Counted from the first letter of the stretch, positions 3,979-40,114 are shown. The stretch is DNA of 64,000 nt from Desulfobacterales bacterium (GCA_046496215.1 JAWOHH010000040.1:27493-91492), one strand, 5' to 3'. Notes: a model not told the origin generated them from the letters alone. Made by a program: numbers and translations.

Positions 3979-6386
3979 GCGTCGATCCTCACGTCGAATT
4001 CTTTTTTCAGGCGGTGGGCGCGCTCCAAATAGGACTTCAATTTGCGCTGGATCCGGCCGTAAACGGTATCAGCCGGATAGACCCCTTCGCGGTCCGGCAG
4101 CCCCGCCGGCATCCCGGTCAGGATCTCGATGCCCTGCTCGACGTTTGTGACCCGGTAGATGTGAAAGCGCCGGCGCCGGACGGCGTCGATCACTTCCTTG
4201 CGCAGCATGAGGTTCTGGACGTTGGCCTCGGGGATGATGACCCCCTGCACGCCGGTCAGCCCCTTTTCCAGGCAGACCTCGAAAAAGCCCTCGATTTTCT
4301 GGTTGACGCCGCCGATTGCATGAATCTTCCCCTTCTGGCTGACCGAGCCGGAGACCGCGATGCCCTGGCGGATCGGGGTTTCCGCCAGGCTGGAAAGGAT
4401 GGCGTAGAGCTCGGCCGAGGAGGCGCTGTCGCCGTCGATGTCGCTGTAGCTCTGCTCGAAAGTGATGCTGATCGCCAGGCTGAGAGGGTGGGCCTGGGCG
4501 AAGACCCGACCCAGGTAGCCGGAGAGGATAAGCACGCCTTTGTCGTGGGTGCGGCCGCTCAAGCGGGCTTCGCGCTCGATGTTGATCACCCCCGGCTTGC
4601 CCATGAACGTTTCGGCCGTGATGCGCACCGGCCGGCCGAAGGAGAAATCCCCGATCTGGTAGACGGCCAGGCCGTTGATCTGGCCGACCACGGCCTCCGC
4701 GACGTCGATCAGGATGGTACCGTCCCGGTAGGATTCGTGGATCTTCTGCTCGTAGAGGTTGTAGCGGAAGCGGTGCTCCTGGAAGGCCCGGACCACGTGC
4801 CTTTCCGAAACCTTCCGGGCGCGCTGCTGCCGCGCCCAGTAGTCGGACTCCTTCAGCACCCCCAGCAGGGGGCCGAAGCGGATGGAGAGCTTGTTCTGGT
4901 CGGCGACGTACTTCTTGCCGAACTCGACGATTGCGGCCACCCCCTTGGGCGTGAACGGCAGCAGCTTCTCCTCGCGGCAGACCCGTGCGATGAAGTGCGC
5001 GTAGAGCTGGACCGTCTCCGGCGTGTGGGCCACCTCCTGGTCGAAATCCGCGCGCACCTTGAAAATTTTATTGAAGCGGGCATCGTAGTTCTGGAGGAGT
5101 TCGAAGACGTCATAGTCCCCCAGCAGGATCACTTTAACCTCCAGCGGGATGGGCTGAGGCTTCAGCGATGTCGTGCCGGCCCCGGATTCATCCGGGAGGT
5201 CTTCGATCTGCAGGCGCTTGGTCTGCAGGGCCCGCTTGAGGGCCTCCCAGACGTACGGGTGCATCAGCAGGGCTTCGATCTCCATGATCAGATAGCCGCC
5301 GTTGGCGCTGAGCAGAGACCCCGCGGTCACCAGGGTGAAATCGGTGTTGACCGTGCCCATGACCGCGCGCTTCTCGATGCGGCCGAAAACGTTTTGGTAG
5401 GTGGGGTTGGTTTCGAAAATGACGGGCGCCCCCTTCATGAGCTCACGCTGCACGAGAACGTTGACCTGGTATTGCTGCAGGGGCGTTTTCGGGCTCTGCG
5501 GCCACTCCGCCGAGGCTGCGGCCTCGCTCTTTTCCGGGGGCATGAAGAGGTTGAAGTTCTCGACGATGTCCGCCTGCAGCGCGTCGAGATACGCAAGGAC
5601 GCTTGCGCGCTGTTTGAAGTCCTGGCGGATGGGCGCGAAGCGTTTTCCGACCAGGGCCCTCACCACCTCGTCCATGAGGCGTTCGATCTCGGCGTGGAGC
5701 TGCTGGTTCAGCTTTTCGATCCGGCGGCCGCTGCGTTCCATTTCCGACTGGATGAGGCGAATGTTTTCGTCGATCCCGGCGCGGATCTCCCCGGGAAGCC
5801 CCTGGTAGTCCTCGGCGGAAAGGATCTTGCCGTCCAGGATCGGGACCACGGGGTAATCCTTCTGGGCGGAGTCGATGTGAAGATGGTGCTCCGCGGCAAA
5901 CCGCTCTATTTTTTTGAAAATTTTCGCCTGCCGGCCGCTGAAGCGCTCTTTGATCCCGGCGAGGCTTTTGAGATAGCCATCCTGCTCGAAGGCCCGGGGG
6001 ATATCGCGCTTCAAATCGCGGACCAGCCGGTTGACGCGCTTGGCAAACGAAACGCCGCGGCCGGGGGGCAGGGCGATCGCCTGCGGGCGGAACTCGTCCT
6101 GAAAGTTGTTGACCAGGCACCAGTCGTCGGGGACGGCCTCGCTGCGGGCGTGCTTTGAAGCAATGTCGCGCACGATGGTGGATTTGCCGGTCCCTTCCGT
6201 GCCGGTGACGAAGATGTTGTAGCCGGGGCTGCGCATGTTGAGACCGAACTCAATGGCCTGGACGGCGCGTTCCTGGCCGATGACCGTGTCGAGCAGCGGC
6301 AGCTCGGAGGTGTCCTTGAACGCGAAGACGGAGGGGTCGCAGACGCTGCGAAGGGCGGAGGCGTCGAGTTCCAATGCGTTGGCCAT
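3975..6386 (-). CDS. Lon-related AAA+ ATP-dependent protease (LonB/lon_rel type)
   Basis: Walker A FVTGTEGTGKST and a C-terminal Lon proteolytic domain (DGDSASSAELYAILSSL ... GKIHAIGGVNQKIEG). Start set to ATG 6386 (MANALELD), which has a GGAG SD 7 nt upstream. The longest ORF reaches 6455. Confidence 0.85.
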   Translation of the reverse strand: MANALELDASALRSVCDPSVFAFKDTSELPLLDTVIGQERAVQAIEFGLNMRSPGYNIFVTGTEGTGKSTIVRDIASKHARSEAVPDDWCLVNNFQDEFRPQAIALPPGRGVSFAKRVNRLVRDLKRDIPRAFEQDGYLKSLAGIKERFSGRQAKIFKKIERFAAEHHLHIDSAQKDYPVVPILDGKILSAEDYQGLPGEIRAGIDENIRLIQSEMERSGRRIEKLNQQLHAEIERLMDEVVRALVGKRFAPIRQDFKQRASVLAYLDALQADIVENFNLFMPPEKSEAAASAEWPQSPKTPLQQYQVNVLVQRELMKGAPVIFETNPTYQNVFGRIEKRAVMGTVNTDFTLVTAGSLLSANGGYLIMEIEALLMHPYVWEALKRALQTKRLQIEDLPDESGAGTTSLKPQPIPLEVKVILLGDYDVFELLQNYDARFNKIFKVRADFDQEVAHTPETVQLYAHFIARVCREEKLLPFTPKGVAAIVEFGKKYVADQNKLSIRFGPLLGVLKESDYWARQQRARKVSERHVVRAFQEHRFRYNLYEQKIHESYRDGTILIDVAEAVVGQINGLAVYQIGDFSFGRPVRITAETFMGKPGVINIEREARLSGRTHDKGVLILSGYLGRVFAQAHPLSLAISITFEQSYSDIDGDSASSAELYAILSSLAETPIRQGIAVSGSVSQKGKIHAIGGVNQKIEGFFEVCLEKGLTGVQGVIIPEANVQNLMLRKEVIDAVRRRRFHIYRVTNVEQGIEILTGMPAGLPDREGVYPADTVYGRIQRKLKSYLERAHRLKKEFDVRIDA

Positions 6387-6485
6387 GCAGGGCTCCTCTG
6401 GCATCGGTTGGCGATGACCGGATTCAGGATTAGCCCAATCTCGTGAAGATGACAACCCGCAGGGCGGCTATGGCTCCACGGTTTC

Positions 6486-6526
6486 AAAAAACGCAGAGCA
6501 CCGGTTGGGGCCAACCGGTGCTCTGC
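6486..6526 (-). terminator. Rho-independent terminator downstream of the cold-shock gene
   Basis: Near-perfect inverted repeat gcagagcaccggttgg/ccaaccggtgctctgc (6493-6526). On the minus strand it is followed by G-TTTTTT. Confidence 0.7.
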
Positions 6527-6582
6527 AAACCTCGTTTTTAAGCTTTTAAGGATCTTTAGCCGGGCATCGATCTGGGCTCTCT

Positions 6583-6795
6583 CTATTTGTAGGCTTTGAC
6601 CGCCCGGACGTTGACGGCCTGCTTGCCGCGCTGGGTTTCGCGCACCTCGAAGGTCACCTTGTCGTCCTCCTGGAACCCAAAAAACCCAAATTCCTTGATA
6701 CCGGAATTGTGCACGAATATTTCACCGACCTCATCCGAGGTGATGAAGCCGTAGCCTTTTTTCGGGTTGTACCATTTAATGCGGCCTTCAACCAT
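6583..6795 (-). CDS. Cold-shock protein (CspA family, 70 aa)
   Basis: MVEGRIKWYNPKKGYGFITSDEVGEIFVHNSGI contains the RNP1/RNP2 motifs (KGYGFI, VFVH-like). An AAGGAAG SD lies upstream of ATG 6795. The track ORF is N-terminally over-extended. Confidence 0.9.
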   Translation of the reverse strand: MVEGRIKWYNPKKGYGFITSDEVGEIFVHNSGIKEFGFFGFQEDDKVTFEVRETQRGKQAVNVRAVKAYK

Positions 6796-6898
6796 GAGAT
6801 CTTCCTTTCGCGGGGACTTGAGCCATATCCGAGACACCCTAAGGGTTCCGGCTCGATTTGTCAAAATCTAATTGAAGCCCCGCGGGTTTTTCAACCTT

Positions 6899-8134
6899 TC
6901 AGCGGGTCGGGGGCGCCCTGTGGTAGCGGACCGGGGTCCGGCTGCCGGCCGGCTTCCGATAGGCGCCGAAAGAACGGGGTGCCGCACCCGACGGGCGGGG
7001 TGCCGCTGCCGGCGGCGCGGCACCCGGTGTCCGGTTCGCTTCGAACTTGAGTTTGCCGCCGATCAGGTTGCCGATCTCCCGGGCGAGCCCACGGTCTTCG
7101 CTGCTGACAAACGTGATGGCCTCGCCGGTTGCGCAGGCACGGCCGGTGCGCCCGATGCGGTGGGTATAGGCATCGGCGGTGGCTGGGATGTCGTAGTTGA
7201 TCACGTGCGAGACCCCGCACACGTCGATACCGCGGGCGGCGATGTCCGTTGCCACCAGGATCTTGTAGCGGCCGGCCCGAAATCCCTGGATGGCTTTCTG
7301 GCGGTTGTTCTGGGACAGGTTGCCGTGCAAAGCCGCGGCCTCGTACCCGGAGGCTTCGAGTTGCTGGGCCACCCGTTTCGAACGCTGTTTGGTGCGCGTG
7401 AAGACCAGGACGAGGCCGGTCGACTCCGTTTTCAGTATGTGGTGCAGAAGCGAGTTCTTGGCGCTGGTCTCTACCGGGCAGAAGGTGTGGGAGACGGTCT
7501 CCGCCGGCGCCGTGCGGCCGATTTGCACCCGGACCGGGTTTCGCAAAATATCGCTGGCCAGGGCGTTGATCTCCGGGGGCATCGTGGCCGAGAACAGCAG
7601 CGTCTGGCGCCCGGCGGGCAGGTGCTTCAGAATGGCCCGGATGTCCGGCAGAAATCCCATGTCGAACATCTGGTCGGCCTCGTCCAGAACCAGGACTTCG
7701 ACCCGGGAGAGGTCTATGGTTTTGCGCCGGAGATGGTCCAGCAGCCGGCCTGGGCAGGCCGAAACGATATCCGCTCCGCGGCGCAGGGAGGCGACCTGGG
7801 CCTGCATGCTGGCCCCGCCGTAGATGCTGAGGCAGGCGAGGCCTGTTTTACGGCCCAACTGGCGGGTGGACTGAAGGGTCTGCTCGGTTAGCTCGCGTGT
7901 GGGGGCGATGACGAGGGCGCGCACGCCGCCGCGGCGCCCCGGCATCAGACGCTGCAGGATCGGCAAAACGAAGGCGGCGGTCTTGCCCGTTCCGGTCTGG
8001 GCAAGGCCCATGACGTCCTTGCCCTCCATGATCGGCGGGATCGCCTCCAGCTGGATCGGGGTCGGTGTCGTGTAGCCCAGCGCCTGAACGCCGGCCATGA
8101 TGTTGGGGTTTAAACAAAAGCGATTGAAATTCAA
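6899..8134 (-). CDS. DEAD-box ATP-dependent RNA helicase (RhlE-like) with an Arg/Gly/Pro-rich C-terminal tail
   Basis: Q motif GYTTPTPIQ, Walker A AQTGTGKT, DEAD, SAT and HRIGRTGR. Start set to TTG 8134, preceded by AAGGAGAAG. This gives MNFNRFCLNPNIMAGV. Confidence 0.85.
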   Translation of the reverse strand: MNFNRFCLNPNIMAGVQALGYTTPTPIQLEAIPPIMEGKDVMGLAQTGTGKTAAFVLPILQRLMPGRRGGVRALVIAPTRELTEQTLQSTRQLGRKTGLACLSIYGGASMQAQVASLRRGADIVSACPGRLLDHLRRKTIDLSRVEVLVLDEADQMFDMGFLPDIRAILKHLPAGRQTLLFSATMPPEINALASDILRNPVRVQIGRTAPAETVSHTFCPVETSAKNSLLHHILKTESTGLVLVFTRTKQRSKRVAQQLEASGYEAAALHGNLSQNNRQKAIQGFRAGRYKILVATDIAARGIDVCGVSHVINYDIPATADAYTHRIGRTGRACATGEAITFVSSEDRGLAREIGNLIGGKLKFEANRTPGAAPPAAAPRPSGAAPRSFGAYRKPAGSRTPVRYHRAPPTR

Positions 8135-8407: not shown

Positions 8408-8791
8408 ATGAAACGGACAGCGATATCTGTCGCACTGATCTGCGCGGTGCTGATGGCGGTGCCCTCGCACGGGGAGGCAGGCCACCGACACACGCGGTAT
8501 TTCTTCGGTTTCAACATCGGCGTCCCGGGGCCGGCCTGGTACGGGCCGTCGGTCTGGGCGCCGCGGCCCTACTGGGCGCACCCGGTGGTGATCCCGGCTC
8601 CGCCCGTCTATTACGCGCCGGCCCCGGTTTACACTCAGCCGCCCCCGGCCTATTCCCGTCAGCCGGCCCTTGAGGAGTCGGATTACTGGTACTACTGCGA
8701 GAGCCCGCGTGGGTATTACCCGTATGTCAGGAGCTGCCCGGGCGGGTGGATGCGGGTGGTCCCGGAAACGGTGCCGCCCGACCATCGATAG
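8408..8791 (+). CDS. Secreted Pro/Tyr-rich protein with a C-terminal YWYYC..GYYPYV..CPGGW motif
   Basis: Signal peptide MKRTAISVALICAVLMAVPSHG. GGGAGG SD 8 nt upstream of ATG 8408. The conserved-looking Cys motif sits at the C-terminus. Confidence 0.6.
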   Translation: MKRTAISVALICAVLMAVPSHGEAGHRHTRYFFGFNIGVPGPAWYGPSVWAPRPYWAHPVVIPAPPVYYAPAPVYTQPPPAYSRQPALEESDYWYYCESPRGYYPYVRSCPGGWMRVVPETVPPDHR

Positions 8792-8807
8792 CCCGAAGGG
8801 GAGGAAG

Positions 8808-9362
8808 ATGATGCGGACCCACAATCTGGTTGCGATTTTTGTCCTGTCGGTGGTCCTGGTCGGCTGTGCCACGATTCCTCCCGGCCCGAGCGTGGCGGTG
8901 ATGCCGCCCCCGGGGAAATCCTTCGAGGCGTTCCAGTCCGACGACGCGGTGTGCCGGGGGTGGGCGCAGCAGCAGTCCGGCTGGCAGGCGAACGACACCG
9001 TCAACCGTAACACGGCCGACGGGGCGGCCCTCGGCGCCCTGATGGGGGCGGGGTTGGGCCTTGCCATCGGGGCCGCCTCGGGCAACCCGGCCGCGGGTGC
9101 CGCCATCGGGGCTGCGGGGGGTGCCCTGGGCGGTGCCGCCATAGGTTCGGAGCGGGGCGCCGTTGCCGGTTGGGAGGTCCAGCGGCGCTATGACGTGGCC
9201 TACCAGCAGTGCATGTATGCCAAGGGCAACCAGGCCCCTGAATTTTCCCCTCCGCCCCGCCGCGCCCGCACCCTGCTGCCGCCCCCGCCGCCCCCGGTCT
9301 ACTCTCCGGGAGGCTATGCGCCGCTGCGCGCGGGGCCGCCGCCGCCACCTCCGTGGCGCTGA
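8808..9362 (+). CDS. Glycine-zipper outer-membrane lipoprotein
   Basis: Lipobox LVGC after the signal peptide. Gly-zipper GAALGALMGAGLGLAIGAASGNPAAGAAIGAAGGALGGAAIG. Pro-rich tail. GGGGAGGAAG SD. Confidence 0.7.
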   Translation: MMRTHNLVAIFVLSVVLVGCATIPPGPSVAVMPPPGKSFEAFQSDDAVCRGWAQQQSGWQANDTVNRNTADGAALGALMGAGLGLAIGAASGNPAAGAAIGAAGGALGGAAIGSERGAVAGWEVQRRYDVAYQQCMYAKGNQAPEFSPPPRRARTLLPPPPPPVYSPGGYAPLRAGPPPPPPWR

Positions 9363-9597
9363 CCCGGTATCCCTCCACAAACGGCGTCTTTCGGCTCAGG
9401 CCGGCGTTCTCGCTCTTCGCAATCCTCGGCGTAGATGGACTACGCCTCCGGTTGCGAAATCGCTGCGGTCTTGGCCTGAACCGCAATCCACCATTTCTGG
9501 ATGAATACCATTAGACCGGCAGCAAAATATGCTCAAATCGGAACTCTCCCATACAGGCCGCTCCTGTGGGGCTATCCCACCGGCAGGGTGTGTGAGC

Positions 9598-14955
<5,358 letters not shown>

Positions 14956-27560: not shown

Positions 27561-28187
27561 CTATTTGGGCACAAAGAGATCCCAGTCGACCCCCTGGCTT
27601 TTTGGAGAACCGGAAGCGGCCCCTTGGCCGCTCTCGACGGTTGCCTCCGTTTTCAGATCAAAACAGCGGGACTCCGCCTGCATCAGGTTCCACATGGTCA
27701 GCTTGACCGAGTTCCCCTTCTTCTCCTCTTCGTCTTTGAGATTGTGCTGCAGGACGAGGCTGATGTCGTTTCCGTTCTCGTCGACAAACGACCACTTCCA
27801 GACGATCACGATCCCGAAGGGGTCCCCGCGCCATTTGTCGGGTTTCCCGAAACGCTGTTGGAAGCGCACCAGTAGTTTGTCATAGAACTCCTTCGAGGAA
27901 TCCGCATATTTGAATTTCAGCCGGATGATCCGCGGCGGCTGGAGACAGGTCCCGTAAGCCACGAGGCCGGTCTTGTAGCCGAACTGCGGAACCGTCTCGA
28001 CTTCCTTCAGGGAATCCAAAAACCGTATCGGTATGGTCGTCTCCTCCCGGAGCATGTGGCGGTGGTTTTCCACCAGATCGCCGACAACGAACCCCGCCAA
28101 CCCCCGCGGAACGGTTCTGCCGTGGCTTTCCGACCCCGGCACCATTGCTGCCAGCAGTACAACACCGCAGATCACTATCCGAAGCAT
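27561..28187 (-). CDS. Hypothetical secreted protein (208 aa)
   Basis: Signal peptide MLRIVICGVVLLAAMVPGSES after a GGAGG SD. The over-extended ORF N-terminus runs into repeat copy A. GC is lower than the surroundings by eye. Confidence 0.55.
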   Translation of the reverse strand: MLRIVICGVVLLAAMVPGSESHGRTVPRGLAGFVVGDLVENHRHMLREETTIPIRFLDSLKEVETVPQFGYKTGLVAYGTCLQPPRIIRLKFKYADSSKEFYDKLLVRFQQRFGKPDKWRGDPFGIVIVWKWSFVDENGNDISLVLQHNLKDEEEKKGNSVKLTMWNLMQAESRCFDLKTEATVESGQGAASGSPKSQGVDWDLFVPK

Positions 28188-28220
28188 GGCCGCCTCCATT
28201 TGCAGAATTCCTTTATCAAA

Positions 28221-28335
28221 CCGGCAACAAAACATGTTCAAATGGGGACCCGTCCGTCCCGGCCACGCCCGATGGGGGTCTCACTCCCACCGGGCTATCC
28301 CGCCGATAGGGTGTTTGACGGAATTTTGTTGCCGG
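28221..28335 (+). repeat. MITE-like palindromic intergenic repeat, copy A
   Basis: CCGGCAACAAAA...TTTTGTTGCCGG terminal inverted repeats. Shares catgttcaaatgggga and ccgatagggYgtttga blocks with copies at 18030-18144 and 54077-54173. Confidence 0.8.
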
Positions 28336-31749: not shown

Positions 31750-33657
31750 GTGCAAACGCAGTTTCACGACAGCTTGAGAATCGTTCGGGAGGACCTGCCG
31801 CGGCTGGCCGATGTTCTCAAACTCGATGTTGCCGGGGAGATGGGCCCCTGGGCCAAGGCCATCGACACCCGTCTGCTGGCCCGCTTCGATCCGGGGTTCC
31901 CGCTGGTGGCGGCCGTGTGCGGGGGCGGCTCCTCGGGGAAATCCACTTTGTTCAACGCCCTGATCGGCGCCCCCCTCTCGCCCACCGGCGGCCGGGCGGG
32001 CATGAACCGCCGGGTGCTCTTTTCCCTGCCCGCGGCCCTCTCCGGCCGTGAGGAGCTCGTGGCCGGGCTGCTGGACCCCTTCGGCGCGCCCGCGGCCCCG
32101 CTCGAGCAAATCGAGGATCTTCTCGTGCTCGGGGGGCCGTTGTTCGTGCCCACCACCGGTTCCGTCGTTTTGCTGGATACACCTGATTTCGACACGGGTG
32201 CCGGGGGCCGCTACGCCAACCGGGACAGCGCCCGCAGCGCCCTGGAAGCGGCGGACATCCTGATCTACGTTTTCACCAACTCCAACTACAACAACCGCGA
32301 CAACACCGATTTCATCGCCGAAATGCTGACCGGCATCGGCCGGCGCAAGTGCTTTCTCGTCTACCGCGCCTACCCCGGCTTCAGCGAAGGGGAGGTGGTC
32401 GAGCACGCCATGACGGTGGGCCGCCACATTTACGGCGAAGAGGCCGGCCGCTGCGTCCTGGGGATCTACCGCGCCGACGAGGACAACCGCGTTGCGGCCG
32501 GGGCGATCCCGATGGTTTTGCGGCCGGCCCGATCCGGCGATCCGGGGTTTGACGCGGCGCTGCAGGCGATCGACCTGCCGCGGCTGAGGCACGAGCTGCA
32601 CGCCAGCATCGTGGCCGATGCGCTCGGGAAGGCCCAGGGGCTGGCCGCTCGTGCCACGGCCTCCCTGGAGGACCTGAAGCGGTATGGCGCGGCCCTGCGG
32701 GCGGCTCAAGGGTTGTGCCTCCAGGAGGCGCTGAGTTTCTTCCCGATGGATCGGGTGGTGCGGCGCTTCGCCAAAATCTGGTCGGACACCGACCCGCCGG
32801 CAGTCAAGCTGATGCGGCGCACCGGGAGCTTGATCGAGCTGCCCGTGCGGGCCCTGCTGGGGGCGGCCGGGTGGGCTCGGGAAAAGCTCTCCGGCGAACC
32901 GGCCCCGGCCGCACCGGAGGATCAGTTTTCCCGCAAGCTCGAGGAAAACCTCGTGGCGGCGGCGACGTCGCTGAATCATTACCTTCTGAGCCCGCACCTG
33001 TCCCTGCCCATACCCTCCTCCGCTCCCATGGAGATCGAGCGTGCCCAGGCCCCGGGGCAGACTTTCACCGACCCGGTCGCGCCGGTGTCGGTGGCGGCGC
33101 ACCCGGCGGTGTTCCCGGCCCAGGAGCGGCTCCGGCTGCAGGACTTCAGCTCGGCGCTGCAGCGCATTTTAAGCCGAAAGGACGAAATCGGCCGGATCGG
33201 CCATGATATGGACGATGACCTGCGGCAGCTGGCGGACCATTTCCGCAGCCGGATGGGGACCTGGGCCAAAATCAGCCAAACCTTCTGGGCGGCGCTGAAC
33301 GTCCTGCCCGCCACGGTGGCGGTGACCTACGTTTTGTCCACCGGGGACCCGGTGGGTGGGGCCACGATCAAAGTCAAACTGGCCGGGCTCTTCGGCGTGA
33401 AGGACCTCTACGCCCTGGTGGCCATCCCGGTGACCCGCGGCATGAAAAAAGCCGACCGCAGGCAGCTCAAGGCGATGCTGGGGCCGCTGGCCCGGACCTG
33501 GTTGCAAGGCAAGTCCGCCCTGGTGCAGGCACTGTTCGAGGAGGCGCTCTCCGGGGAGATCCTGCGCTCGGTCGAGGACACCGCCGCCGCTGCCGGCCGC
33601 CTGGCAGATTCCCTGGCGGTGGCCCTCGGGCGCGCCGCCACCGGGGGGGACCTATGA
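31750..33657 (+). CDS. Dynamin-like/P-loop GTPase, divergent (paralog 1)
   Basis: G1 is GGGSSGKST and G3-like is LLDTPDFDTG. A later hydrophobic segment is FWAALNVLPATVAVTYVL. Start set to GTG 31750, because the ATG at 31558 would abut the divergent gene. Confidence 0.65.
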   Translation: MQTQFHDSLRIVREDLPRLADVLKLDVAGEMGPWAKAIDTRLLARFDPGFPLVAAVCGGGSSGKSTLFNALIGAPLSPTGGRAGMNRRVLFSLPAALSGREELVAGLLDPFGAPAAPLEQIEDLLVLGGPLFVPTTGSVVLLDTPDFDTGAGGRYANRDSARSALEAADILIYVFTNSNYNNRDNTDFIAEMLTGIGRRKCFLVYRAYPGFSEGEVVEHAMTVGRHIYGEEAGRCVLGIYRADEDNRVAAGAIPMVLRPARSGDPGFDAALQAIDLPRLRHELHASIVADALGKAQGLAARATASLEDLKRYGAALRAAQGLCLQEALSFFPMDRVVRRFAKIWSDTDPPAVKLMRRTGSLIELPVRALLGAAGWAREKLSGEPAPAAPEDQFSRKLEENLVAAATSLNHYLLSPHLSLPIPSSAPMEIERAQAPGQTFTDPVAPVSVAAHPAVFPAQERLRLQDFSSALQRILSRKDEIGRIGHDMDDDLRQLADHFRSRMGTWAKISQTFWAALNVLPATVAVTYVLSTGDPVGGATIKVKLAGLFGVKDLYALVAIPVTRGMKKADRRQLKAMLGPLARTWLQGKSALVQALFEEALSGEILRSVEDTAAAAGRLADSLAVALGRAATGGDL

Positions 33658-35435
33658 AAGCGCTGGAGCGCCAGGGCGCCACCCTCAAAGCCCTGGGACG
33701 GATCGAGGGCTTCACCTTCGAACTGAAACGTTTGAAGGGCGATCTGGGCGCGCTCACCCTCTGGCGACCCGCGGCGGGTCTTTGCCGGCAGTGCGATGAG
33801 GCCCTGCGCATGATCGAAGGAATCGCCGGGCGGCTGGACCGCAGCCTGGTCGTGACGGTCATCGGGCCCTCCGGGTCAGGCAAATCGACCCTGGTGAACG
33901 CCCTGGCGGGGGGCGATGCGATCTCCCCGACCGGGCATCGCCGGCCCACGACCGAGCGGGTCGTGATCTTCGACCGCAACGGAGAGGATGCCGCCGAGCT
34001 TGCCCGGGATCTCGGCGCCGATGCGGCCGCTGTCCGGGCTGCAGAGGGCGGGCGCCTGCCGGAAGGGATTTGCCTGATCGACACGCCGGACACCGACAGC
34101 ATGGCAAACCGGCGCCACCTGCCGATGCTGGAGCGGGCCGTGGCCCATTCGGATGTGCTGATCTGCGTGTTCGACGCCGAGAACCCCAAGCGCCGCGACC
34201 ACGTGGACACCCTGGCCCCGATCGTCAGGCGCTTCGACGGCGAGTCGTTGGTGGTCGTGCTCAACAAGTGCGACCGGCTGGATGAAGTCGAGCTGCAGGA
34301 GAGGATCCTACCGGATTTCTTGGAGTATCTTCGCAGCGCCTGGGGCGGGGCCGCCGCCGGCGTGCTTTGCATCAGCGCCCGCAGCCACCTGCGCGAACCG
34401 GCCTGGGACCCGGCGGCGGGGCCGCGGCACGGGTTCGACCAGTACGCCGGATTGACCCGGATCGTTTTCGGCGAGATGGGCCGCAGCGGGTTTGCGATCG
34501 ACCGGCGGACCGAAAACGCCCGGCGCCTCCATGATGTCGTGCGCGCGGAGCTCTGGCGCGCGCTGGCCGACGACCGCGCGGCCCTGGAAGAGGCGGGGCG
34601 CCGTCTGAGCGACCTGCACGCCGAAGCCGCGGCGGCGGCCTTGCAGGCGCTGCGCAGCGGCGACGTCCGGCTCCCGCCGGGGATGGGGGCTGCGGTCTAC
34701 CGGCAGCTCGCGCAGCGCTGGGTGGGGCCGGTCGGGTGGGTGCTGGCCCTTTGGGCGCGTCTGCTGAGCTTCGGCAGCGGGGTCGGTTCCGTCCTGCGGC
34801 TCCGCCGCCCGCTGTCTCGCAACCGTCAGGTTTCCTTGGAGCGGCGTTCACAGGCAGGGGAAAACGAAGACGGCCGCCTGAAGGCGGCGATCGACGGCTT
34901 CCGCCTGGCGCTGCTGAAGCGTTGGCCGGATGCTGCGGAGATGCTGGTGCGGGGCCGCTTCGACCCGGCGGTGCGGGCGGCCGAAACGGCCGACGCCTGC
35001 GTGGAGGCATTTTCCGGGCCGCTCACCGCGCTCTGGGCGGAGGCCGTCGAAGCGGAAAGCGCCAGGATCCCCTCGACACTCGGCGGGTTCTGGCTCCAAG
35101 CCCTGTTGAATGCCCCGGTGGCCGGCCTGATCGGCTACGTGGGGTGGGTGGCGGTGGTGAGTTTCTTCCGGGGCGACTACCTCGGAGGGGGCTTTTTCGT
35201 GCACGCGTTCTGGTTGATCGGCATCGCCCTTGCGCTCGGCTTTTTCCTGCTGCAGGTGCTCATCCGGCTGTTCCTGAACCCCGCCCGCATCGCCGGGCGC
35301 GCCGCCCGGCGGTGCGGGCGGGGGTTGACGCCCGGGATGCGCGGGCCGGCCACCGAGCTGAGCGCGCAGCTGCTGACCCTGCGGGGGCTGATGGCGGCGC
35401 TCCTCGACCCCACGGAAGGCGTCTATCGGGTCTGA
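33654..35435 (+). CDS. Membrane-anchored dynamin-like GTPase (paralog 2)
   Basis: G1 is GPSGSGKST, G3-like is LIDTPDTD and G4 is LNKCD. Two C-terminal hydrophobic helices. ATGA overlap with the upstream gene. Confidence 0.75.
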   Translation: MKALERQGATLKALGRIEGFTFELKRLKGDLGALTLWRPAAGLCRQCDEALRMIEGIAGRLDRSLVVTVIGPSGSGKSTLVNALAGGDAISPTGHRRPTTERVVIFDRNGEDAAELARDLGADAAAVRAAEGGRLPEGICLIDTPDTDSMANRRHLPMLERAVAHSDVLICVFDAENPKRRDHVDTLAPIVRRFDGESLVVVLNKCDRLDEVELQERILPDFLEYLRSAWGGAAAGVLCISARSHLREPAWDPAAGPRHGFDQYAGLTRIVFGEMGRSGFAIDRRTENARRLHDVVRAELWRALADDRAALEEAGRRLSDLHAEAAAAALQALRSGDVRLPPGMGAAVYRQLAQRWVGPVGWVLALWARLLSFGSGVGSVLRLRRPLSRNRQVSLERRSQAGENEDGRLKAAIDGFRLALLKRWPDAAEMLVRGRFDPAVRAAETADACVEAFSGPLTALWAEAVEAESARIPSTLGGFWLQALLNAPVAGLIGYVGWVAVVSFFRGDYLGGGFFVHAFWLIGIALALGFFLLQVLIRLFLNPARIAGRAARRCGRGLTPGMRGPATELSAQLLTLRGLMAALLDPTEGVYRV

Positions 35436-35537: not shown

Positions 35538-37406
35538 GTGGCCGGCCGGCCGAAATCGGACGCCGCTGACCATAACGACGACTCCGAAGCGAGGCCGGAC
35601 ATGCTGAATCAACCGCACAGCTTTCACATCCCCGTCATGGGCACGGGGTTCACCATCGACACACCCCTGAAGGTCGCCCGCTACGGGATCTCCTCCGTCA
35701 TATCCCTCGTGGATGACGTGCTCATCGAGCAGGTGCGGAAGTATCACTGCGACCGGCTCGGCGAATCCTTCGAGCCCATTGCGGACGGCGAGGAAGACTG
35801 CCGAGCCCGCCGCATCACCGCCTATTTGGACCTGGTGGATCGGTTGGTGAGACGGCAGGTGAGGCAACTCCAGGCCTCGCCCTTCGAAGAGGGCAGCGAG
35901 ATCACCCGCTACTTCCGCATGCTGCCGAACGGGATCTTGAAAACCGCTTATGAGGCCATGCTGGCTGCGGCCGAAGGGCCGGAAAAGGAGCGCTTGCAGG
36001 CCGGCCTCCGCCCCCTGGCCGTTCCCGGCAACATCGACGTCAACATCATGACCAAGCTCGACGGCGACGCCTACCATGGCGGCCGGAAGCTGGCACCGGA
36101 GTTCTCCCACGCGATGTCCGCCCTGCGAGGTTTTGCCCGCAGCTCCCTGAACTCCGCCATCATATTTTCGGCGGGCATCAATCAGCGCCTCTACCGCTAT
36201 GCCGCCACCTTCGACGACTTCTTTCCCGTTGCGGGCGGGCATTTCAAAAAAACCATCATCCTGAAGGTCAGCGATTTCCACTCCGCCGAGGTCCAGGGCA
36301 AATTTTTGGCCAAGCGCGGGCTTTGGGTCTCCGAGTTTCGGATCGAATCGGGGCTCAACTGCGGCGGGCACGCCTTCGCCACCGATGGCCACCTGCTCGG
36401 GCCGGTCCTCGAAGAGTTCAAGCAGCGGCGATCCGAGCTTGGGGAAACCCTGCGCAACGGCTACCTCAAGGCGCTCGAGGCCCAGGGGCGGCCGATGCGC
36501 TGGGAGCCGGGCAGCGTTCGGGTGACGGTGCAGGGGGGCATCGGAACGGCGGAAGAGAACGATTTCCTGTTGCGGTACTACCTGCTGGAAGGCACGGGCT
36601 GGGGAACGCCCTTCCTGCTCGTGCCCGAGGCGACCAACGTGGACCGGGTGCAGCTCGACAAGCTTCTCAACGTCCGGCCCGGTGACGTGTATCTCAGCGA
36701 CAGCTCACCCCTGGGCGTTCCCTTCTGGAACCTGCGGACCTCGGCCAGCGAAGAGGCGCGGCGGCGGCGTAACGCTGCGGGCCGCCCCGGGAGCCCGTGC
36801 CCAAAAGGCTACGCCGCCTTCAACACGGATTTCAGCGAGGTTCCGATCTGCATCGCCGCCCGGGCCTATATCCGGCGCAAGCTCGGCAAGCTGTCGCAGG
36901 AAGGGCTTTCGGCCGAGCAACTGGATGCCGTCCGGCAGGGGGTGCTCGACAAGTCCTGCCTGTGCAACGACCTGGCCGGCGGCGCCGCGCTGAACTACCA
37001 CCTCGACGACCAGGCCGCTCCGGCAGTCTGCTGCGGGCCCAACATCGTGAACTTCTCGAAACTGGCCTCCCTGGAGGAGATGGTCGGCCACATCTACGGC
37101 CGGCTTTGCCTGCTGGCCAACAGCGAGCGGCCGCACATGTTCGTCGAGGAGATCAGGCTTTACGTGGAGCATCTGCGCAAGGAGGTCTCCTGCTTTTCGA
37201 TCGGCCTGTCCCGCCGCCCCCAAACCTACTTCAGCACTTTCAAGGAAAACCTGCTCAGGGGGGTGGACTACTACCACGACCTCGCACGTCAATTCATCGA
37301 GGAAAAGCGGGGGCGCTTTGTGGAGGAGCTGGAATGCATGCGCCGGGAGATCGAGGCGGTGCTTCTCCCAGCCCCGGTCGAGGCCAGGAACAAGATGGCG
37401 TCCTGA
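35538..37406 (+). CDS. Uncharacterized protein: NMO/FabK-like FMN TIM-barrel motifs plus a Cys-rich C-terminal extension
   Basis: HIPVMGTGFT, ESGLNCGGHAF and VQGGIGTAEEN..GTGWGTPFLLVPEA resemble the nitronate monooxygenase signature. GTG 35538 has an AAGGA SD. Alternative ATG at 35601. Confidence 0.6.
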   Translation: MAGRPKSDAADHNDDSEARPDMLNQPHSFHIPVMGTGFTIDTPLKVARYGISSVISLVDDVLIEQVRKYHCDRLGESFEPIADGEEDCRARRITAYLDLVDRLVRRQVRQLQASPFEEGSEITRYFRMLPNGILKTAYEAMLAAAEGPEKERLQAGLRPLAVPGNIDVNIMTKLDGDAYHGGRKLAPEFSHAMSALRGFARSSLNSAIIFSAGINQRLYRYAATFDDFFPVAGGHFKKTIILKVSDFHSAEVQGKFLAKRGLWVSEFRIESGLNCGGHAFATDGHLLGPVLEEFKQRRSELGETLRNGYLKALEAQGRPMRWEPGSVRVTVQGGIGTAEENDFLLRYYLLEGTGWGTPFLLVPEATNVDRVQLDKLLNVRPGDVYLSDSSPLGVPFWNLRTSASEEARRRRNAAGRPGSPCPKGYAAFNTDFSEVPICIAARAYIRRKLGKLSQEGLSAEQLDAVRQGVLDKSCLCNDLAGGAALNYHLDDQAAPAVCCGPNIVNFSKLASLEEMVGHIYGRLCLLANSERPHMFVEEIRLYVEHLRKEVSCFSIGLSRRPQTYFSTFKENLLRGVDYYHDLARQFIEEKRGRFVEELECMRREIEAVLLPAPVEARNKMAS

Positions 37407-37477: not shown

Positions 37478-37990
37478 TCAAGCGCGCCCGTCGGGGTTGA
37501 AAATCCCCTCGAACCATTGGATGGAGGCCTCGTCCGCAATTTTCAGGCGCTTGGCGACGGCCGGGGAGAAGACCTTGAAGGTGGCTCTCGCGCGGGCGCA
37601 CACCTCGCCGGAGGCGTCTATCAGGAGCCCCTCGGTCACGGCGTCGTACCTGCCGTTCGTCTGCTTCACCCGCCCCTCGGCCCTCAGTTCATGCCCCACC
37701 CTCGCCGGTTTGACGAATTCGACGTTAATGCTGTGGGTGAGCGCGATTCGTTTCAAGAGGTAGATGGCCGACCAGCTCATGATCTCGTCCAAAATAGTCG
37801 TCAACACCCCGCCGTGGACGATATTGCTCCAGCCGCAAAGATGCTCCGGAACCGTCACGCGGGAATAGACAACCTGCTCGTCGGAGAAAAACCGCATGCG
37901 CAGGCCGGAGGGATTGACCGGGCTGCACCCGAAGCAGTTATGGTTTCCGCTGCGGGGCAGTTCCTTTAGGGGTGAAGGGGGTGTCATCAT
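37478..37990 (-). CDS. PaaI-family hotdog-fold thioesterase with an N-terminal Cys motif
   Basis: NCFGCSPVNP followed by the hotdog core HGGVLTTILDEIMSW. Confidence 0.8.
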   Translation of the reverse strand: MMTPPSPLKELPRSGNHNCFGCSPVNPSGLRMRFFSDEQVVYSRVTVPEHLCGWSNIVHGGVLTTILDEIMSWSAIYLLKRIALTHSINVEFVKPARVGHELRAEGRVKQTNGRYDAVTEGLLIDASGEVCARARATFKVFSPAVAKRLKIADEASIQWFEGIFNPDGRA

Positions 37991-39452
37991 TCGGGTAGAT
38001 GCGGTTGAAAAGGTTCACAGCCATGGCTTCGTCCAGCCTCTGCAGAATTTTGTACTGCTCGAGAGCCCCGGGCGTGTCGCCACGCTTCAGCAGCGCCGCG
38101 CCCATCGCGTGATGCGCAGGGGCGAAATCCGGGTCGACGCGGATGGCCTCGCGGTAGGCCGCCATCTCTTCTCGCGGCCGGCCCAGGTGGCCCATGGCGG
38201 CGCCCATGGCGTGATAGGCCGGTGCGTAGCCCGGGTTGATGCGGATGACGATTTTCTGAGCCTCGATCGCCTCCTGGAAGCGGCCCAACTGGCTGTGGGC
38301 GAGTCCGGCGTTGTAGTGGGCGGGGCCCGCTTCCGGGTTGATCCGGGTGACGGCCTCGAAGGCGTCCTTGCCCTCGGCGTACCGGCCGATCCCCACGTAG
38401 ATCAGCCCCAGGTTGAAATAGGCCGCCTCGAACTGCGGGTTGATGGCGAGCGCCTCCCGGTAGCCGGCAATGGCGTCCTCGTGCCGTCCGATGCGGCTGT
38501 AGAAGTTCGCCAGGCGAAAATGGGCCACCTCGTCCCGGGGGTTGGCCTGCACGGCCTGCCTGAAGGCGGCCGCGGCGTCCTCGGGATGGTCCAGGCCGGC
38601 GTAGCATGAGCCCAAACCGCCCCAGGCCTCGGAGTCGGTCGGATCGGCTTGCGTGGCCTTGAGAAAGTACTCCAACGCCAGCCGGTCCTCGCCCTCGATC
38701 GAGAACTTAAACCCCCGTTGGCACAACTCCTCGGCCACCCGCGGCTTGCTGCCGAGGTGGGTGAAAGCCCACTCGGAAACCGTCATGAGGTTGTCGAAAG
38801 CCCTGAGCGCCGACATCTGCTGCGTCGTCACCGCAAAGTTCAGGTTCTGGCCCTGGACGAACTGGAAGGTGGCGATGCCGAGCACCTGGCCCCTCGCGTT
38901 GACCACCGGGCTGCCGCTGGAGCCCGGCGAGATCGGGGCCGACATTTGAAACACCGGGCCGATGACGGGGACTTCGCGCAGGGAGGAGACGATGCCCTCG
39001 CTCACGGTTTGTTCGAGCCCCATGGGGCTGCCGACCACGACGATGCGCTCGGCGATCTTCGGCAGCCGGTCGCCGACGGGAATCCACGACACTTCCTCCG
39101 GCGGGATGTCCACCTGCAGCTTTAAAAGGTCGGCGGCCTTGTTCTCCGCCAGCACCGCCTTGACGGGATAGGAGTTTCCTTTGGATGTGCGTATATCGGC
39201 CGCGAAGTTGCCGGCGAGCACATGGAAGTTGGTGATCAGATGCCCCCGTGGGCTGACGAAGAACCCGGTTCCGATCCCCGCAATATGGCGCTGCATGTCA
39301 TATGCGATCACCGTGACGACGGCCGGTTGGATTTTTTTGACCAGTCGGGTCAGGTTGGAATCGGCCGCTGCGGGCGCGACCGCCAAGAGCATCATCACCA
39401 TCGCAGCGATCAGTCTGGGGCGTTGGGTCATAAGGGTGCCTGGTTTCATCAT
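37938..39452 (-). CDS. Secreted trypsin-like serine protease (S1C) fused to TPR repeats
   Basis: Signal peptide, TNFHVL (His) and GSSGSPVV (Ser), followed by about 6 TPR repeats (AxxNLGLIY-type). Confidence 0.85.
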   Translation of the reverse strand: MMKPGTLMTQRPRLIAAMVMMLLAVAPAAADSNLTRLVKKIQPAVVTVIAYDMQRHIAGIGTGFFVSPRGHLITNFHVLAGNFAADIRTSKGNSYPVKAVLAENKAADLLKLQVDIPPEEVSWIPVGDRLPKIAERIVVVGSPMGLEQTVSEGIVSSLREVPVIGPVFQMSAPISPGSSGSPVVNARGQVLGIATFQFVQGQNLNFAVTTQQMSALRAFDNLMTVSEWAFTHLGSKPRVAEELCQRGFKFSIEGEDRLALEYFLKATQADPTDSEAWGGLGSCYAGLDHPEDAAAAFRQAVQANPRDEVAHFRLANFYSRIGRHEDAIAGYREALAINPQFEAAYFNLGLIYVGIGRYAEGKDAFEAVTRINPEAGPAHYNAGLAHSQLGRFQEAIEAQKIVIRINPGYAPAYHAMGAAMGHLGRPREEMAAYREAIRVDPDFAPAHHAMGAALLKRGDTPGALEQYKILQRLDEAMAVNLFNRIYPNDDTPFTPKGTAPQRKP

Positions 39453-39574: not shown

Positions 39575-40114
39575 CTATTTCTTCTTGCTGGGTGCGGCTT
39601 TCGCAGGCGGGGGAGTGGGTTTGGGATACTTCTTCAGGTTGGCGACTTTGGTAAAACCGGGCACATGGGCGTAGGACACGGCATGGTAGCTCTCCCCTTT
39701 GTAGAGGATCACCCGGGTGCTGCCGAGCAGCCATGAGGCCCCCTTGGTACCCTCCGATCGGGGCCGCCCGTGGCCCTTGGCAAGAGACGATTTCAGAGCC
39801 TCGAACGTTATCCGGTCGGGATCGAAGAAAACCGTCCCCATGTAGAACTTCTTTTCGTGGAATGCAAACGAAGCGTCCCTGACCGGGATGCCATTCAGGT
39901 TTTTCAGCTTTCCGGAATAGACCGTCTCCTGGGGGATCACATCCGGCACCGCAAGCGTCTGCTCGCTGCAAAGCATGAGCTTTTTGCAATCCCCCTCCGG
40001 CTTTGCCCATTGCAGGCCCGCCAACCCGCCGGGATCGGCTGCTGCGCGCGCATTCCCTGCTGCCAACATCAAAAGAAACCCGATACATGCCAACCAACGT
40101 GCGCTGTGAATCAT
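39575..40114 (-). CDS. Hypothetical secreted protein with a Lys/Pro-rich tail (179 aa)
   Basis: Signal peptide MIHSARWLACIGFLLMLAAGNARA. No recognised domain. It sits between the Hint and protease genes. Confidence 0.6.
   Translation of the reverse strand: MIHSARWLACIGFLLMLAAGNARAAADPGGLAGLQWAKPEGDCKKLMLCSEQTLAVPDVIPQETVYSGKLKNLNGIPVRDASFAFHEKKFYMGTVFFDPDRITFEALKSSLAKGHGRPRSEGTKGASWLLGSTRVILYKGESYHAVSYAHVPGFTKVANLKKYPKPTPPPAKAAPSKKK

Follow-up and report, generated by a model that had tools for sequence, protein, structure and literature searches.

A conserved pair of dynamin-like proteins with a DxPD switch-II motif on a Desulfobacterales contig

Bacterial dynamins are poorly understood, and structures or phenotypes are available for only a few of them, namely BDLP1, DynA, LeoA, IniA, Cj-DLP1/2 and SynDLP. 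IniA and DynA are peripheral membrane binders, and the paired IniA/IniC proteins and the fused DynA, all bacterial dynamin-like proteins (BDLPs), have been linked to the fission and repair of membranes and to tolerance of stress. Most bacterial dynamin-like proteins (DLPs) are encoded side by side in operons as pairs that act as hetero-oligomers (PMC6104087). The classical switch-2 consensus of the dynamin family is DxxG (PMC4159319), and the aspartate of the G4 motif confers guanine specificity in the superfamily (PMC5084822). Here we describe a gene pair from a 64,000-nucleotide stretch of DNA of a Desulfobacterales bacterium (GCA_046496215.1 JAWOHH010000040.1:27493-91492; hereafter the window, with positions counted from its first letter) in which both products read DxPD at switch II. 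Gene A (31750-33657, + strand) is an open reading frame (ORF) for a dynamin-like protein of 635 aa; gene B (33654-35435, + strand) encodes a dynamin-like GTPase of 593 aa with a full G1-G5 motif set and a C-terminal transmembrane hairpin. In the literature we found no described DxPD dynamin subfamily and no relevant dynamin work in Desulfobacterales.

The pair is most likely a two-gene operon of the BDLP/mitofusin architectural class, belonging to a distinct subfamily that extends over several phyla. A preliminary description of the locus, made from its sequence, had reported two adjoining large P-loop proteins overlapping by ATGA, and this overlap of start and stop codons is seen in the sequence at 33654-33657 (+ strand), an arrangement of translational coupling. 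The product of gene A is identical to a protein (P0121) listed at NCBI as 'hypothetical protein' on a 94-kb Desulfobacterales contig from a metagenome-assembled genome (MAG), and that of gene B is identical to one (P0001) listed as 'MAG: GTPase [Desulfobacterales bacterium]' on the same contig. The GTG at 31750 is taken as the start of gene A because of the identity to P0121 and the alignment of homologues, which uphold the start chosen originally.

The pairing is strictly conserved. A metagenome scan returned 426 stretches encoding relatives of A, from which 80 loci were retrieved; adding the window and two long contigs from ENA brings the set to 83 loci. Eight of these stop within 185 nt of the A stop codon and are uninformative, leaving 75. 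B follows directly 3′ of A on the same strand in every one of the 75, as a separate gene in 74 and within a single ORF in one. The gap between the genes is 8 nt or less at 70 of the 74 loci with separate genes. Junctions among the 75 loci take the form ATGA/GTGA (30), TAATG (16) or a +3 spacer (19), a pattern that argues for translational coupling. The single ORF (locus L095, 7884-11750) joins A and B at approximately 9940-9975, after a run of eight G. It resembles the DynA fusion but may be an assembly frameshift: we did not count it as evidence of a natural fusion, since the run of eight G makes a frameshift across the ATGA overlap more likely. Identity to the window copy is higher for A than for B at 58 of 58 loci (means of 54.5% and 48.1%), which indicates that A is under stronger constraint than B and is not decaying.

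The family reaches far beyond the lineage in which we encountered it. When 1.84 billion representatives were searched exhaustively with a profile, 124 clusters (50% identity) came out at E <= 1e-30. They form a graded series of full-length proteins of about 560-620 aa, with scores down to approximately 105 bits, and the most distant clade carries the source names of Planctomycetota, Candidatus Binatia and Dormibacteraeota MAGs. An A-like gene lies directly upstream of the B-like gene at six of six distinct remote loci (L105, L106/107, L108, L109, L110 and L111), for three of which source names are known (Binatia, Planctomycetota and Dormibacteraeota). There, A-like proteins read GPNNAGKS, PTGGATRR, DTPDFDS and, at the G4 position, LVYNE; B-like proteins read RPTT, DAPDxNS and NRxD. 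Because the same gene order and the same asymmetry are found in remote phyla, the module is old and is not specific to Desulfobacterota, the group in which the preliminary description had suggested looking for its conservation.

Protein B has the whole set of GTPase motifs, at the places given for it in the preliminary description as far as that description went (GPSGSGKST, LIDTPDTD and LNKCD, all confirmed by translation). The G1 motif or P-loop, GPSGSGKST (33864-33890, as are all features of the pair on the + strand; coordinates checked by translation), is invariant in the B alignment, and GxxGxGKS[TA] is kept in the wider B-like family of 187 full-length proteins. The G2 motif in switch I, RPTT (33942-33953), is present in 50/50 copies and in 183/187 B-like proteins. 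At the G3 position translation gives DTPDTDS (34080-34100), with DxPD; in the 187-protein comparison D143 and P145 are found in all members and D146 in 186, the remaining one carrying Gly. The G4 motif NKCD (34263-34274) follows strand 199-204 and reads NK[CG]DR in 49/50 copies; its Asp is kept in 184/187 B-like proteins within N[KR]xD, mostly as NRxD. The G5-like motif CISAR (34368-34382) is near-invariant, with xxSAR predominant among the 187 proteins and SGR, SAK and SAL as minor variants.

Towards its C terminus, B has a transmembrane hairpin (35088-35273) made of helices at about 479-505 and 512-540 in the AlphaFold2 (AF2) model and followed by C-terminal helices. Its hydropathy maximum is 2.49, and hydrophobic C-terminal helices are retained in most of the distant family members checked. 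The two strongly hydrophobic helices described initially, at about 479-540, are thus present, with some 50 residues beyond the second. Upstream, the motif WVGPVGW (34719-34739, residues 356-362) stands at the start of a helix of the helical domain that is amphipathic or hydrophobic, with W356, G358, P359, G361 and W362 invariant in the B alignment. WxGPxGW is kept across the whole B-like family, remote phyla included, and reads WDGPGGW in 103/187 members; the stretch after it is Gly-rich and partly disordered. This motif may be a second membrane-interacting element.

Protein A departs from the canonical set in a consistent way. Translation places GGGSSGKST and LLDTPDFD where they had been reported. 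In the P-loop (31921-31947) G58, G63, K64 and S65 are invariant in the A alignment. The switch-I region, PTGGRAGMNRRV (31981-32016), has no invariant Thr; its invariant residues are N86, R87 and R88, and PTGG, PVGG and PAGG all occur before a constant NRR. The G3-like motif DTPDFD (32176-32193), again DxPD for DxxG, is invariant in the A alignment and was found in 73/73 unique metagenome copies, a count for which the motif itself was among the search patterns used. A reads DTPDFDTG throughout at G3, and the Mg-binding Asp is retained. The DTPD common to A and B, which had been noted in place of the usual motif, is a genuine and conserved departure from DxxG.

The G4 motif of A required a correction. 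It had been stated that A has no recognisable G4 and that TNSNYNNRD stands at that position. There is indeed no NKxD in A, but profile-profile alignment (hhalign) and the order of strands show that TNSNYNNRD stands elsewhere: it pairs with DAENPKRRD of B, and ILIYVFTNSNYNNRDN of A is aligned opposite VLICVFDAENPKRRDH of B, after strand beta-4. The corresponding post-beta-4 motif of A, FTNSNYNNRDNTDF (32272-32313), is homologous to VFDAENPKRRDH of B in the hhalign register and is present in 65/73 unique metagenome copies. We considered whether the common xNxxRD(N/H) pattern is a dynamin 'trans-stabilising loop' and set this aside, since the B segment also aligns with GPMPQTREH of EF-Tu. We place the G4 equivalent of A at FLVYRAYPGF (YRxY; 32353-32382) because it comes after predicted strand 200-207, just as NKCD of B comes after strand 199-204. 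Neither N/TKxD nor the Asp that specifies guanine is found there, and [FL]L[VI]YRxYPxF is conserved among the metagenome copies.

A also contains a hydrophobic, Gly-rich segment (33262-33435, residues 505-562), a putative membrane-inserting paddle or hairpin. This matches the internal hydrophobic segment described earlier: its hydropathy is moderate, with maxima of about 1.5, its sequence is nearly invariant, and its pLDDT is low. The membrane-binding elements of both proteins are predicted from hydropathy and modelled helices. Judged by their motifs, then, B keeps the full GTPase set; in A the P-loop and the Mg-binding Asp are retained, the switch-I Thr and the G4 Asp are not. Since these motifs are invariant in many full-length homologues of both families, they are more than chance.

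The loss of the switch-I Thr and of the G4 motif is what one would expect if B alone were functional, as a homo-oligomeric membrane GTPase, and A were a degenerate duplicate with no active role. We regard this as highly improbable, given that A is the better conserved protein at all 58 loci, has an invariant P-loop, an invariant DTPD and many other invariant residues, and is never missing upstream of B at informative loci. The loss of G4 is moreover common to remote phyla, which, with the constant pairing, implies that A has long been under strong selection in its degenerate state.

Both proteins can be assigned to the dynamin superfamily, as divergent members, a call that had been made from the sequence and that now finds backing in profiles and models. 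Pfam Dynamin_N (PF00350) scores 37.7 bits against A and 42.0 bits against B, above a gathering cut-off of 27 that most of the distant family members tested also exceed; no NCBIfam model was passed by either protein. AF2 models built on 28-30 homologues reached a pLDDT of 80.4 and a pTM of 0.67 for B, and 75.9 and 0.69 for A. Searched with Foldseek against the PDB, the model of B matches best BDLP (2j69, E 6e-9) and Cj-DLP1 (5owv_A, 1e-8), followed by MFN1/2, IniA, Drp1, LeoA and EHD. The model of A (best E 1.6e-7) matches OPA1, Fzo1, SynDLP, Cj-DLP1 and Drp1 at the top, and also dynamin, IniA and LeoA. All 50 listed matches of B and about the first 46 of A belong to the dynamin superfamily with a probability of 1.00. 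On these models, A and B have a dynamin-superfamily fold, with B ordered as N-terminal helices, G domain, long helical region, transmembrane hairpin and C-terminal helices. The two proteins are also distant paralogues, as had been proposed: in profile-profile comparison hhalign aligns the first half of their G domains, and no more, at a probability of 97.8% (E 8e-13).

Sequence searches taken by themselves could suggest another assignment, a non-dynamin one, in which the pair would be membrane-tethered regulatory or assembly GTPases (Era/EngA-type or heterodimeric and SRP-like) or an ABC-type ATPase acting in protein targeting, transport or signalling. The generic Pfam family MMR_HSR1 exceeds its cut-off for A and B, and GTP_EFTU does so for B, whose region from beyond beta-4 to G4 aligns with EF-Tu. 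Sequence-only PDB searches return mostly ABC, EF-Tu or Ras P-loop matches, those of ABC type dominating, with marginal dynamin signals (5owv, E 1e-4; SynDLP, E 3e-3); they were uninformative for the assignment, which was reached by comparing folds. Many homologues bear a transporter name as well: the sources call the family 'GTPase', 'hypothetical' or, wrongly, 'EcfA2', and JGI/IMG labels many homologues of B 'energy-coupling factor transporter ATP-binding protein EcfA2' or 'GTPase SAR1 family protein'. The EcfA2 label is explained by the ABC-like P-loop alone. Against such an assignment, the ABC matches cover some 30 residues around the P-loop, ABC_tran reaches 21.9 bits, below its cut-off of 25, over residues 57-87 only, and the LSGGQ signature was not found in the translation of A or B. 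The NCBIfam models for Era (34.3 bits for a cut-off of 237) and EngA (28 for 306.7) fall far short, and in the models the full-length fold, long helical bundles included, matches dynamin-superfamily structures. We therefore hold a non-dynamin identity to be very unlikely.

Among described systems, Cj-DLP1 and Cj-DLP2 of C. jejuni (PDB 5OWV/5OXF) are among the top structural matches of A and B, at a sequence identity of about 10-13%. Our pair differs from them in the DxPD that both proteins carry in place of DxxG, in the loss of G2 and G4 from A, and in the integral transmembrane hairpin of B, which stands where the Campylobacter proteins have a peripheral tip. BDLP1 of Nostoc punctiforme (PDB 2J68/2J69), the best Foldseek match of B, has 14% identity to it and a different G3. 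The likeness lies in the neck and trunk bundles, formed by the N- and C-terminal helices on either side of the G domain, and in a membrane-binding element; in BDLP1 this is a paddle that binds the membrane transiently (PMC6104087), whereas B has two long hydrophobic helices instead. Mitofusin/Fzo1 structures (5GOM, 5YEW, 9KFD) have the same domain order as B, with the hairpin between the helical region and the C-terminal helix. Like A and B, mitofusins come in pairs, as heterotypic isoforms (PMC6104087), but they are eukaryotic proteins of the outer mitochondrial membrane with a canonical DxxG (PMC4159319), and sequence alone reveals no homology between them and our pair. IniA appears in the Foldseek lists of both A and B; there is no close sequence relation to IniA/IniC or DynA.

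Taken together, we consider it probable that A and B form a heteromeric dynamin-like machine anchored in the cytoplasmic membrane, with a predicted part in membrane tethering, fusion or repair under housekeeping or stress conditions. The two proteins would be made at a ratio of about 1:1 and, on the model of the 2:2 tetramer of Cj-DLP1/2, would form a hetero-oligomer. B would be the catalytic GTPase and the permanent membrane anchor. A would be its nucleotide-binding partner, catalytically impaired or of a different specificity, using its conserved hydrophobic, Gly-rich segment to engage the membrane, and regulating or completing the active site of B across a G-G interface. Movement of the helical bundles, driven by nucleotide, would then tether, fuse or repair the cytoplasmic membrane.

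Several points weigh against such a machine. The Dynamin_N matches of A and B lie mainly in the P-loop stretch. The TM-scores given by Foldseek are low: full-length matches reach 0.2-0.3, the highest values being those of mini-MFN1 at up to 0.38 (query-normalised) and 0.55 (target-normalised); the fold call accordingly rests on the local 3Di score and on the consistency of the matches, not on global superposition. Low TM-scores are expected for multi-domain proteins with mobile hinges. The segment of A that would enter the membrane (residues 505-562) is modelled at low confidence, and binding between A and B is predicted by analogy with Cj-DLP1/2. With Asp in the place of Gly in switch II, canonical switching by GTP might be changed or lost, and B possibly does not behave like a textbook dynamin. 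Finally, the housekeeping context of the pair and its absence from plasmids and viral contigs, both described below, would as sequence observations also be compatible with a role in defence or stress.

A more far-reaching possibility, which we regard as conceivable though on balance doubtful, is that the module represents a class of dynamins, ancient and spread over several phyla, that are obligate heteromers and have a non-canonical catalytic cycle. One subunit might then be a pseudo-GTPase constitutively devoid of G2 and G4, or might bind ATP or some other NTP; nucleotide sensing or hydrolysis might need a composite A-B active site; and the switch-II Asp or the invariant N-R-R of A would possibly act in trans. 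The composite site so proposed would differ from the symmetric G-G dimer mechanism established for dynamins, mitofusins and BDLP.

The genomic context bears on the role of the membrane machine that we favour. Around the pair the window carries a divergent pair of ADP-forming acetyl-CoA synthetase genes and genes for an EamA transporter, a PNPOx-like protein and an MscS-type channel; other flanks are the convergent genes of a 4HBT thioesterase and a trypsin-TPR protease, and Fe-ADH. The neighbourhood had been called metabolic, and the annotation of the flanking genes agrees. These housekeeping flanks are syntenic in relatives: at the 37 loci with enough downstream sequence, the thioesterase is found downstream of the pair in 23 and the trypsin-TPR protease in 25. 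In a marine-sediment clade a divergent RNase_T + GIY-YIG gene is present at 36 of the 49 loci with enough upstream sequence. Remote clades have different neighbours, again lineage-stable. Neighbours that are stable within lineages and differ between them are the pattern of a vertically inherited chromosomal operon, and the stable chromosomal context is why we prefer a housekeeping or envelope-stress role over a mobile anti-phage role.

Such an anti-phage role had been suggested by the initial comparison with Eleos/LeoABC, the pair being seen as a possible defence module; as an Eleos-like system of LeoA and LeoBC it would sense or counter phage infection at the membrane. Eleos is a two-gene dynamin-like system (bioRxiv 10.1101/2022.12.12.520048), and Eleos/LeoABC of enterotoxigenic Escherichia coli (ETEC) resembles our pair in having two dynamin-like components of which one is membrane-anchored (PMC4159319). 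LeoA and LeoBC are the best PADLOC matches of A and B, and LeoA is present among the Foldseek matches of both. The scores are weak and partial: against B, LeoA reaches 35.2 bits over profile positions 55-297 of 559 (43%, 243 positions) and LeoBC 26.7 bits over positions 78-190 of 601; against A they reach 21 and 12.7 bits. The G3 motif differs, LeoBC is split or fused differently from A/B, and the anchor of LeoC lies inside the G domain. Nor does the context resemble a defence island or a mobile element, as the flanks are syntenic across dozens of loci per lineage and differ between the lineages examined, in keeping with vertical descent. PADLOC run on 10 neighbouring genes matched no defence model apart from a protease-domain match, tblastn of 72,556 plasmid records found no relative of the pair, and a scan of viral contigs found none either. 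The defence framing is thus not sustained, and we judge an Eleos-like system to be quite unlikely. Chromosomal location does not speak against it altogether, as some chromosomal BDLPs have a part in phage tolerance; for one of them, DynA of B. subtilis, a contribution to phage defence is reported (PMC12998192).

No third gene common to all lineages examined was found beside the pair. Directly downstream of B in the window lies an ORF (35538-37406, + strand) of 602-622 aa whose likely start is the ATG at 35598. It was considered as a third operon gene and rejected, being a singleton that is absent beside the pair elsewhere: it has no counterpart at the 82 other loci, and its sequence matched nothing in Pfam, NCBIfam, PADLOC or the PDB. 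It lies between the pair and the thioesterase gene, which in relatives comes directly after the pair, and thus resembles an insertion specific to one lineage. Another downstream candidate ('cluster 6', 13 loci) was discarded, as it appears to consist of antisense shadow ORFs.

Other neighbours are noted here for completeness. The RNase_T + GIY-YIG gene of the marine-sediment clade (for example at 5901-7871, - strand, of locus L045) encodes about 590 aa and lies approximately 240 nt upstream of A; a metallophosphoesterase gene comes next. A trypsin-like serine protease adjoins the pair in distant lineages. In the window it is the convergent trypsin-TPR gene (37938-39452, - strand), and in L105 a trypsin-PDZ (HtrA-like) gene (8791-9885, + strand) begins 3 nt after B and is followed by genes for a low-molecular-weight (LMW) phosphatase and NfeD. 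The recurrence of this protease may be fortuitous, or it may point to a connection with envelope quality control. Two further ORFs in the window, at 27561-28241 (- strand, 226 aa) and 39575-40114 (- strand, 179 aa), have hydrophobic, signal-peptide-like N termini and no Pfam or NCBIfam match.

We class the A/B module as a paired BDLP whose topology is mitofusin-like, whose switch II has a conserved Gly-to-Asp exchange and in which an active partner has long stood beside a degenerate one. As such it adds a branch to a known machine and does not open a new category of biology. The family is large, with its 124 clusters and 426 metagenomic copies of A, and is without a curated NCBIfam model; the assignment given here corrects a widespread mis-annotation, including the JGI name 'EcfA2'. 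The asymmetry of A and B and the conserved Gly-to-Asp exchange together offer a natural experiment on the division of labour in heterotypic dynamin pairs and on the need for the switch-II glycine. A mitofusin-like hairpin topology in bacteria bears on the origin of the mitochondrial fusion dynamins, and the pair is a good target for biochemical and structural work.

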